A stretch of DNA of 62,749 nucleotides, counting the filler, from Basidiobolus ranarum (lineage: Eukaryota): assembly GCA_040143965.1 (NCBI GenBank). It is 18 parts of 18 records of this genome, joined end to end, with 100 filler letters (N's around TTAATTAATTAA, not from the genome) between each part and the next. Parts side by side here need not be neighbours in the genome. Positions count along the whole stretch, not along the records: positions 10,504 to 13,902 come from JASJQH010009388.1; 17 more parts are not named here. One strand, written 5' to 3'. Position numbers and translations under genes: made by a program. How positions within the stretch are numbered: the stretch's first letter is position 1; every line of letters starts with the position of its first letter. Shown here one piece after another: positions 11,391 through 13,309 of the stretch. A model generated the notes under the pieces. The model was not told the origin of the DNA. It worked only from the letters and a program-made list of their open reading frames with translations, and ran no database searches.

Positions 11391-13309
11391 AACCACCTCT
11401 AAAAATTATAGCAGTCAAAAGCTCAATCGCTGGTATTGAGTGGAAGCCATAATATGTTCCACAACTCATGCCATTTGTAGCTAATATTCATACCCTTGTG
11501 TCACATACGTTTTCCTTTTTGAAGTACATCTTTACTCAAGAACCACAATTCTGAGTTTCTTTTGGCGGATTTCATTGATGTTGACTTTTTTAAAGAAGTC
11601 TTTTTGTCACTCCTCAACAACTACAAGCCAAGCAAACAGAAAGCTTCAAAAAAATCAAGAGCCTACAGAGATCTAATACTCAAATATCGGAATGAGTACT
11701 TTCAGTGCTGCACTTACAAACTAGTCAACATGAAGTATGCTCATCAGATAGCTTCTTATGAAGTGGCAAAAATTGTCACTGCTGATCGGAACGGGTTCAA
11801 CCTTCAATTCGGAGACAATGTTAGAATGTTTTTTAACTTGCTCTTGCTCTTGAAGAAGAACAAAAGAATCAAGGCGCTGGAAAGCAAAATGAAGAAGAAT
11901 GGGGAAAGCGAGAAAAGGATTAGGGCAGCCATAAAGACAATAACAGAGCAAATAAAGAAGGTCAAGCTGGCTATTTCGTCAAGAAATATTGAAGATATAC
12001 CTAAAGAATTTCTAACTTCAAACCATTTGGATAGGATCCGTAGTCTTTTTGGCTTGTATTCGACAGATTATCGATTTGCAAAAGACTCAATCTATTACAA
12101 CTGCAAAGGCAACCCTCTCAAGCATATAAAGGCGTACTCCAGACTGTCAAGCATGTGCGAAGCCCTCCAAAACAAGCCGTTCAACTGCTTTTCGTTAAGA
12201 AGGGGCTTCATACCATCCTACATGACAATTGATACATACATTTTAAATACTCAAATCTTGGAGAATTCTATCACCAGCCACTTGAATAAAGAAGCAGTAT
12301 GGGGAACCGTTATTGACCTCACATCAAAGGCAATGAAACCATAAGGAAAAAGCTAGCCAATGAAGTTTAGAAGTATGATGTACACAGATGGTGTAGGTGT
12401 GTCGGTGTTAAAGCAAAACCACGATACGAAGAAGAAGGGTGGCAGTGGCGCAAAATCAAAGTCACTTGCTTCAAAAGAGGAGTTCAGTATGTGGAGAAGT
12501 TGGGAAGAGAAGAGTTGAAGGTCGGTGTTGGCAAATGTGTGCTAATTGATCCTGGACGTGGCGATTTGCTGTACTGTATGCACGAAGAAAGCTGAAAACA
12601 AAATGGTTTACCGATATACAAGCAACCAAAAAGCGTTTGAAACAAAGTACAGAAAATTCAGGAAGCTCAGAAAGAACTTGAAGACAGACCAAGTCATCAC
12701 AGCTGAGCGATCCCTATTCCATTTGAAATCTTCAACTGCCAACAAAGACAAGTTTGCCAAGTATCTTCAAGGAAAAGCCAAAGTCACTCCAGTCTTGAGA
12801 GCATATTACTCAAATGAAGATTACCCTGCAGGAAAAGACCGGCGTACCAGCAGTTTGTTACCTTTTAGAAAAATGAAGCTCTCAAGTTTCATTAACCAGC
12901 TACAATCAGACAAACAGCTTGCCAAGAATTTTTGAGAGAAGTTTGGGAATGATACTATATTAGTACTTGGTAACTGGTCGATTGGAAATGTAAAGTATCA
13001 ACAGCCCAATAGAGGCGTTGGAATGAGAAAAATGTTAGCCAAAGAAGGCTTCCAGCTATACCTCCCTGACGAGTTTAAAATTTCAAGTATGTGCCCTACT
13101 TGCCAGAACGGTGAACTGGAAAAGTTTCAAAAGTCGTGACCAATACTACTGAGGTAACTACTGAAGATTCACTCCTTCGTCTTTGGAATCGTGACCTGAC
13201 TGCTACTTTGAACTTTAGACATATCCTTTTTAACTTGCGCTCAAATGGGGAAAGATCAGAACGTTTTTGTAGATTGAAGGAACCTCTCTCTACCGGGTAT
13301 AAAAGCTAG
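11391..13309 (+). pseudogene. Fanzor1 (eukaryotic TnpB/Cas12-related RuvC nuclease), near full length, disrupted by stops and frameshifts
   Basis: YTDGVGVSV, RuvC-I LIDPG (12548-12556), FRKMKLS...FG..ILVLGNWS, RuvC-II DEF (13068-13076), CPTC (13092-13103), RuvC-III WNRD..A..N (13184-13213) and C-terminal GERSERFCR. Confidence 0.88.

Follow-up and report, generated by a model that had tools for sequence, protein, structure and literature searches.

A decayed Fanzor1 gene of Parasitella/Rhizopus type in Basidiobolus ranarum, from a family most likely acquired horizontally

What is the broken reading frame at positions 11391–13309 of a stretch of the Basidiobolus ranarum assembly (GCA_040143965.1), and how did it come to be in this fungus? 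The stretch, which we call the window, comprises 62,749 bases and is a chain of 18 contigs of 3,381–3,402 bases each, sorted by falling size and joined by N...TTAATTAATTAA...N linkers, so that contigs side by side in it carry no adjacency meaning. An earlier note on this DNA saw in the frame an almost complete and probably spliced gene, concealed by frameshifts, for Fanzor1, an RNA-guided nuclease related to TnpB. We find that 11387–13346 is a full-length, dead Fanzor1 gene of the Parasitella/Rhizopus type. We are highly confident of the joint reading, in which such a dead gene lies in B. ranarum and its family was most likely acquired horizontally, amplified and died. The relic, hereafter copy 1, sits in contig 4 (10504–13902), and because the window consists of joined separate contigs, all statements about its neighbours cover 3.4 kb only.

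The identification comes from homology along the full length of the gene. Frameshift-aware alignment of copy 1 gave 398 identical codons among 528 aligned (75.4%) with the Rhizopus arrhizus protein P0001, 362 of 567 with P0002 and 345 of 612 with P0005, and the read-through from 11390 to 13306 holds 641 positions, 10 of them breaks. Six open pieces of copy 1 were queried singly against the sequences of solved structures (PDB phmmer). Five match Fanzor1 of Parasitella parasitica (PpFz1, PDB 9cf0), far beyond what chance would give and collinear along chain 566–1254 (Table 1), and the sixth, short piece (11453–11551) matches the same structure weakly (E 0.69, chain 536–560). Three of the pieces also match SpuFz1 (8gkh), with E 7.6e-8 for 11523–12344, 0.018 for 12546–12932 and 3.5e-6 for 12936–13139, and the intact homologue P0005 in addition matches GtFz1 (E 4e-4). 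The homology to characterised Fz1 proteins includes the region N-terminal to the RuvC motifs, where the longest open stretch lies; from its position we take this stretch to be REC/WED. Of 1589 candidates in a search for longer relatives of this 273-aa stretch, 11 proteins reached E<=1e-3, led by R. arrhizus and Rhizopus delemar proteins of 531–577 aa. An exhaustive search showed the family to be large: 300 of its representatives reach E<=1e-3, of which 140 also pass 1e-10 and 26 pass 1e-30.

The motifs agree with this assignment. TDGVGVS, DPG, GNWS, DE, CPTC and WNRD were all confirmed in the sequence where the earlier note had placed them; its two open reading frames (ORFs) exist as well, at 11562–12344 (open from 11523) and 12546–12935, both in one frame, and the joined protein of ~600 aa that it proposed fits the 641-position read-through. 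The structure matches bear out its naming of the protein as Fanzor1, and its claim that all three RuvC acidic residues are retained also holds: copy 1 keeps the D/E/D catalytic positions, which line up with the catalytic motifs in the Fz1 structures that have been solved, in agreement with the catalytic-site description in PMC11423790. The published Fanzor fingerprint (Yoon et al. 2023, PMC10711439) pairs a DPG at RuvC-I with an alternative RuvC-II Glu placed six residues N-terminal to the first CxxC, and in copy 1 the alternative Glu (13071–13073) lies six residues ahead of the first zinc-finger Cys pair, CPTC. The Fanzor motif of Bao & Jurka ends with a C4 zinc finger followed by X(5,50)-RD, and the RD of RuvC-III is likewise found 3′ of the zinc finger here. 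By analogy with PpFz1 and SpuFz1, we infer that the living protein, of ~600 aa, would have been an omegaRNA-guided RuvC DNA endonuclease carried on a DNA transposon.

Copy 1 can no longer make this protein, because its reading path carries five premature stops and about five frameshifts, has ATA in place of ATG, and has lost about 29 codons. Homology runs in frame 2 from 11387 to ~11546, in frame 3 to ~12482, in frame 2 to ~12590, in frame 3 to ~13130, in frame 2 to ~13305 and in frame 3 to 13346, the last P0001 residue. All five stops on this path (at 11450, 12342, 12354, 12933 and 13326) are of the substitution type, and the frameshifts were placed by frameshift-aware alignment of three intact homologues. 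The loss of the second zinc-finger CxxC near 13130, which the earlier note had suspected, is seen twice: tblastn skips from P0001 residue 468 (13133) to 498 (13130), leaving residues 469–497 unmatched, and PpFz1 chain 1184–1213 has no counterpart in the window. The four-Cys zinc finger, incomplete in copy 1, is complete in P0001 and PpFz1; its loss is a lesion of this copy and not of the family. What had been described as a near-complete gene is a pseudogene, unable to yield protein, in which the catalytic motifs are still visible.

Might copy 1 nevertheless be a live gene that only seems broken, through introns, sequencing errors or both? The assembly is a draft of uncertain quality, all three catalytic positions are retained and a 273-aa stretch is open, as would be expected of such a gene. 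Splicing, however, is ruled out: the alignments to intact proteins pass every frame change with no intron-sized insert, the homologues losing at most a few residues, and one of the shifts is a 1-nt deletion relative to a second copy of the gene. The TTATAG that had been taken for a splice acceptor contains the ATA at 11387–11389 that aligns with the ATG of P0002. Five single-codon substitution stops on the homology path, some 29 missing codons that include the second Cys pair, and the ATA start also speak against a live gene, and the second copy bears other lesions at other sites. We regard a live gene as barely credible.

Table 1. Coordinates, in the window, of the relic, its motifs and lesions, and the other features used in the argument
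Feature	Position	Strand	Evidence or remark
Fanzor1 relic (copy 1), whole	11387-13346	+	Homology starts at the first conserved N-terminal strand and stops at the final P0001 residue; P0001, P0002 and P0005 aligned by tblastn and with frameshifts allowed
Longest open stretch, 273 aa	11523-12344	+	Portion aligning ahead of the RuvC motifs
Open piece matching 9cf0 chain 566-825	11523-12344		E 1.1e-49
Open piece matching 9cf0 chain 873-908	12371-12595		E 3.1e-8
Open piece matching 9cf0 chain 903-986 and 1092-1117	12546-12932		E 5.2e-10
Open piece matching 9cf0 chain 1121-1183	12936-13139		E 1.2e-20
Open piece matching 9cf0 chain 1214-1254	13115-13309		E 8.2e-4
TDGVGVS motif	12384-12404	+	Conserved in P0001, P0002 and PpFz1
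RuvC-I DPG with catalytic Asp	12548-12556	+	In shifted frame; aligned to PpFz1 'vlmDPGRRDLLYCM', E 3.1e-8
GNWS strand	12969-12980	+	Aligned to PpFz1 'lvlGNWSa' and SpuFz1 'vvmGDWS'
D-E(alternative)-FKISSM-CPTC	13068-13103	+	D-E at 13068-13073, CPTC at 13092-13103; alignment to PpFz1
WNRD, with RuvC-III catalytic Asp at 13193-13195	13184-13195	+	Aligned to PpFz1 'rlWNRDqaavLNFRkIL'
ATA where P0002 has ATG	11387-11389	+	Within TTATAG; alignment of MEPLLKI with IEPPLKI
Premature stop TAA	11450-11452	+
Frameshift 1, frame 2 to frame 3	11546-11555	+	Placed to a few bases: 11546 with P0005, 11555 with P0002
Premature stops TAA (12342-12344) and TAG (12354-12356)	12342-12356	+	Copy 2 has CAA and AAG there
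Frameshift 2, 1-nt deletion in T run	12481-12487	+	Relative to copy 2
Frameshift 3, return to frame 3	12587-12593	+
Premature stop TGA	12933-12935	+
Frameshift 4 and loss of ~29 codons	13129-13177	+	Zinc finger (TNB domain) loses its second Cys pair
Frameshift 5 (~13307), small deletion, stop TAA (13326-13328), C-terminal tail	13303-13328	+	P0001 alignment
Fanzor1 relic, copy 2	41944-42590	-	tblastn; contig 13, cut by contig end; 5′-truncated at the equivalent of 11872
HPP-family membrane protein gene fragments	10634-11172	-	Upstream, not of the element; Pfam TM_HPP E 4.8e-7 (above cut-off) and 4.4e-5
Dispersed repeat, unrelated	13360-13784	+	Downstream; 86.4% identity to 31134-30709 (-) in contig 9
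Copia-type reverse transcriptase-like fragment	13795-13895	+	74.8% identity to 35110-35010
PhoD-like alkaline phosphatase exon	59369-59714	-	Contig 18; Pfam E 7e-26
~110-bp repeat unit	1350-1459, 29862-29970, 33599-33679, 62640-62749		Sharp common end, four different flanks

The second copy lies in contig 13. Over 637 aligned bases, copies 1 and 2 show 572 matches and 65 mismatches (89.8% identity), the mismatches comprising 47 transitions and 18 transversions. Copy 2 carries a 13-nt deletion and a stop not seen in copy 1, and no lesion is common to the two. A third copy, elsewhere in the assembly, is P0016, an annotated 110-aa fragment from B. ranarum with 79% identity; the assembly thus holds at least three diverged, separately decayed copies. 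Between copies 1 and 2, the ratio of nonsynonymous to synonymous divergence (dN/dS) is 0.37 (dS 0.23, dN 0.085; 193 codons used, 9 skipped). This ratio places much of their divergence in a time when selection still acted on the family, which was then still active, before the death of each copy. A tRNA-Arg(CCT) gene lies at 42995–43069 (+), ~400 nt from the point at which copy 2 is truncated.

Where do these copies fall among other Fanzor1 proteins? We built two trees. The first, a quick LG+G4 tree of 62 rows, comprised the two relics, P0013, P0016 and those of P0001–P0074 with rows >=240 aa, and five cluster members, shorter rows being left out; the second, a careful LG+C20+F+G4 tree, used 35 rows picked from the first (28 ingroup, 7 outgroup). 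The three Basidiobolus rows form one clade with support 98/88 (ultrafast bootstrap/Shimodaira–Hasegawa-like approximate likelihood ratio test), and this clade is sister to that of R. arrhizus and R. delemar (96/92). Next outward comes one row, then Rhizopus microsporus with a JGI pair, and further outward Mucor flavus/Helicostylum, an ENA pair, Cokeromyces/R. microsporus and Pilaira/Thamnidium. Both trees agree that the Basidiobolus copies are nested in Mucorales Fanzor1 clades, and every named row other than those of Basidiobolus is from the Mucorales. An approximately unbiased (AU) test rejects the 19 named ingroup Mucorales rows as a clade apart from the 3 Basidiobolus and 7 outgroup rows (log-likelihood difference 118.8, p-AU ~2e-79).

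Basidiobolus and Rhizopus belong to different phyla, Basidiobolomycota and Mucoromycota. Because the copies nest in the Mucorales radiation beside R. arrhizus and R. delemar, the family most likely entered Basidiobolus horizontally; the tree makes horizontal transposon transfer the likeliest cause of the nested position, and it is from the nesting that the direction of transfer is inferred. On this account, which is the simplest, a Rhizopus-type Fanzor1 transposon would have entered the Basidiobolus lineage by horizontal transfer, amplified there under purifying selection (as the dN/dS given above suggests) and left copies that then died and decayed separately. To the full sequence of events, with a crossing between Mucoromycota and Basidiobolomycota followed by amplification and decay in the Basidiobolus lineage, we give somewhat better than an even chance.

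The nesting could also have arisen under vertical inheritance, if the family were older than the split between Basidiobolus and the Mucorales and the tree recorded ancient paralogues and many losses. Deep Fanzor1 paralogue families do occur in the Mucorales, several of them, and one example is the clade of R. arrhizus P0018, which falls outside the 28-row clade. Yet copy 1 and R. arrhizus P0001 are separated by only 0.35 changes per site, pseudogene decay included. The nearest R. microsporus copy is further from copy 1 than this, and the Pilaira, Thamnidium and Helicostylum copies, within one order, are much further. If descent had been vertical, every Mucorales split in the clade would have to have preceded the phylum split, with 75% identity kept throughout, and we consider this very improbable.

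A more serious rival, and the main one, accepts the pseudogene as real and places contigs 4 and 13 in a Mucorales (Rhizopus-like) contaminant, with no transfer between phyla at all. The assembly is very fragmented, in contigs of ~3.4 kb, the nearest named proteins are all from Rhizopus, a host gene of known affinity was not found on contig 4, and G+C content (0.373 for contig 4, 0.381 for contig 13) fails to separate the two hosts. What ties the contigs to Basidiobolus is a set of shared repeats. Contig 18 carries an exon of a PhoD-like alkaline phosphatase that matches a B. ranarum protein at 100% identity and one of Basidiobolus meristosporus at 86%, with no Mucorales protein among the 120 matches listed. 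An AT-rich unit of ~110 bp in contigs 1, 9 and 10, 86–92% identical to the contig 18 copy, links that contig with contig 9 (109 bp, 88%) and with contig 1 (110 bp, 92%); its sharp end and varied flanks suggest that it is probably a transposon or long terminal repeat (LTR) terminus. The Fanzor1 contigs join this network in turn, contig 4 by a repeat shared with contig 9 (426 bp, 86%) and contig 13 by repeats shared with contig 2 (405 bp, 99%; 5483–5887 and 44925–45329) and contig 1 (395 bp, 93%).

Dispersed repeats thus connect contigs 4 and 13 with contigs 9, 1 and 2, which the analysis links through the terminus to contig 18 and its B. ranarum PhoD gene. Contamination must also accommodate three diverged copies in one assembly, and a database of 5.8 billion clusters in which no Rhizopus protein is closer than ~75% to any of them. 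As far as shared repeats show, contigs 4 and 13 appear to belong to the B. ranarum genome, and we judge contamination unlikely, at about one chance in a handful. The ~110-bp unit was also considered as a tRNA and ruled out.

Several points count against the reading of a dead gene acquired by transfer and resident in B. ranarum. A Pfam-A scan returned no TnpB/Fanzor family for any of the six pieces at E<=1. Pfam is insensitive to this Fanzor1 family: one of five intact homologues gave a sub-threshold Cas12f1-like_TNB match, and our own Pfam scans did not return PF26935.1 for the 11 homologues, all of which bear it as a precomputed label. Both the lesions and the origin of contig 4 were judged from assembled contig sequence. 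What links contig 4 to a contig whose Basidiobolus gene is certain is a series of repeats and no host gene of its own; its HPP fragment is uninformative, with no relatives found at 'near' lengths and a best Atlas score of 0.83. As to the tree, the groups compared in the AU test were defined once the first tree was known; the close rows P0002, P0005, P0012 and P0013 may be non-Mucorales; and the case for transfer is built on the trees.

Can the ends of the element, and with them an omegaRNA, be found? In TnpB elements the guide RNA comes from the right end of the transposon. Because an unrelated repeat starts 14 nt past the end of Fanzor homology (13346), the place where the right end and omegaRNA of copy 1 would be expected is missing or very short. 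At the contig 9 copy of this repeat the upstream sequence is not Fanzor; that copy falls in a 151-aa open frame (30913–31368, minus strand), for which Pfam gave sub-threshold noise only and Atlas low recognition with phage-like clusters only, treated as chance. The 103 nt at the ORF end (13260–13362) fold no better than expected (z = +1.24; of 200 shuffles, 186 reach an equal or better fold), and Rfam gave no match on contig 4 at E<=1. Between the flanks of copy 1 nothing above chance was found in the way of terminal inverted repeats or target-site duplications: one 12-mer inverted match with <=2 mismatches was found against a shuffle mean of 1.44, and the longest direct word common to both flanks has 8 nt.

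On the upstream side, ~200 nt separate the relic from the HPP-family fragments. Downstream, beyond the dispersed repeat, likeness to copia reverse transcriptase is limited to the short fragment at 13795–13895; its counterpart at 35110–35010 is part of an ORF that matches Pfam RVT_2 (E 4.8e-10), and the fragment itself has no Pfam match. An assignment of 13360–13784 to copia pol was dropped. Pfam scans found no transposase domain on the 3.4-kb contig 4, as the earlier note had it; 3.4 kb is too little, however, to judge whether a transposase stands beside the gene or to call the element non-autonomous, as had been proposed.

The closest structurally characterised relative is PpFz1 (PDB 9cf0–9cf3; Xu et al. 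2024, PMC11423790), whose collinearity with the relic begins at the first conserved N-terminal strand and reaches the C-terminus. The two share TDGVGVS, DPGRxDLLYCM, LVLGNWS, DEF(K/R)xSSxCPxC and LWNRD..LNFR, with the same three catalytic positions. Two parts of PpFz1 have no equivalent: its N-terminal extension of ~140 residues (chain before ~508) is absent from the relic and its Rhizopus relatives, and chain 987–1091, some 105 residues that follow RuvC-I and precede the GNWS strand, is absent from the relic and from Rhizopus P0001. Judging by the residue numbers in PMC11423790, the latter segment would correspond to the FRI (cyclophilin-binding) insertion of PpFz1. Whereas PpFz1 has a 75-nt omegaRNA and an ATN transposon-adjacent motif (TAM; PMC11423790), neither has a demonstrable counterpart at the relic.

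Closest of all to the relic, at the identity over 528 codons given above, are the hypothetical proteins of the P0001 cluster from R. arrhizus and R. delemar, a cluster that one source labels 'Transposase'. They are of the relic's size class, likewise lack the PpFz1 insertion and form its sister clade on the tree; their gene models are open whereas the relic is broken, and the host phylum differs. The cluster probably represents a ROr Fanzor1 family that Bao & Jurka described in 2013 (PMC3627910). SpuFz1 of Spizellomyces punctatus (PDB 8gkh) has the same Fz1 architecture and motifs and is much more distant; it has defined inverted repeats and a 90-nt omegaRNA, whereas none can be defined for the relic. 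Its host holds many partial Fanzor1 copies, with 19 of 42 loci full-length (PMC10432273). Bacterial TnpB (IS200/IS605, IS607) shares with the relic the RuvC D-E-D fold and a zinc finger between RuvC-II and RuvC-III, and differs in typically having D-hydrophobic-G and a canonical Glu ~50 residues before the zinc finger (PMC10711439), where the relic has DPG and the alternative Glu.

As a gene, then, copy 1 is ordinary: Fanzor1 is characterised, RNA-guided cleavage by Fz1 having been shown in 2023 (Saito et al., PMC10432273), dead copies of it are frequent, and copy 1 is not functional. The family is known, and the host and the tree position are the only new points. The earlier suggestion that the family might be unknown fails, since Fanzor1 families of Rhizopus oryzae were listed in 2013 (four of them, with others in Mucor and Phycomyces; Bao & Jurka, PMC3627910) and a relative has a solved structure. 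Its companion suggestion, that the host might be new, may be right: we found no paper naming both Fanzor and Basidiobolus in a literature search that did not cover supplementary host tables. Were contamination excluded, the locus would offer a clean case of transfer of an RNA-guided nuclease transposon between fungal phyla. If true, this would be a concrete, datable instance of eukaryote-to-eukaryote spread, which Bao & Jurka 2013 and Saito et al. 2023 raised only as a conjecture, and the relics give a means of dating the invasion. For genome-editing prospecting the locus is of no use; the intact Rhizopus relatives would be the better objects of study.

The window also holds other repeats and genes. 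The contig 2 part of the 405-bp repeat lies within a 339-aa open frame (5566–6585, -) with no Pfam match; the repeat, shared by contigs 2 and 13, looks like a young family, and a LINE-type (long interspersed nuclear element) origin would be a guess. A copia-type retrotransposon at 36110–37843 (+) has an open 467-aa gag/protease-like/integrase frame with Pfam matches to Retrotran_gag_2 (E 9e-31), Pol_BBD and gag_pre-integrs, and was possibly active recently. A large repeat family, 75–86% identical, occupies parts of contigs 3, 6, 7, 8 and 14 (7278–9450, 18176–20666, 20993–24383, 24493–27234 and 46281–48516); its Cys-rich open frames of 140–190 aa, which have no Pfam match, might encode a DNA-transposon protein. 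Finally, two very long open frames, 40333–41841 (-; ~500 aa) and 48987–52302 (-; >1,100 aa), one of which was scanned against Pfam and gave no match, consist of Thr/Ser/His-rich tandem repeats, each with a similar Cys-rich C-terminal module, and look like secreted or wall proteins.

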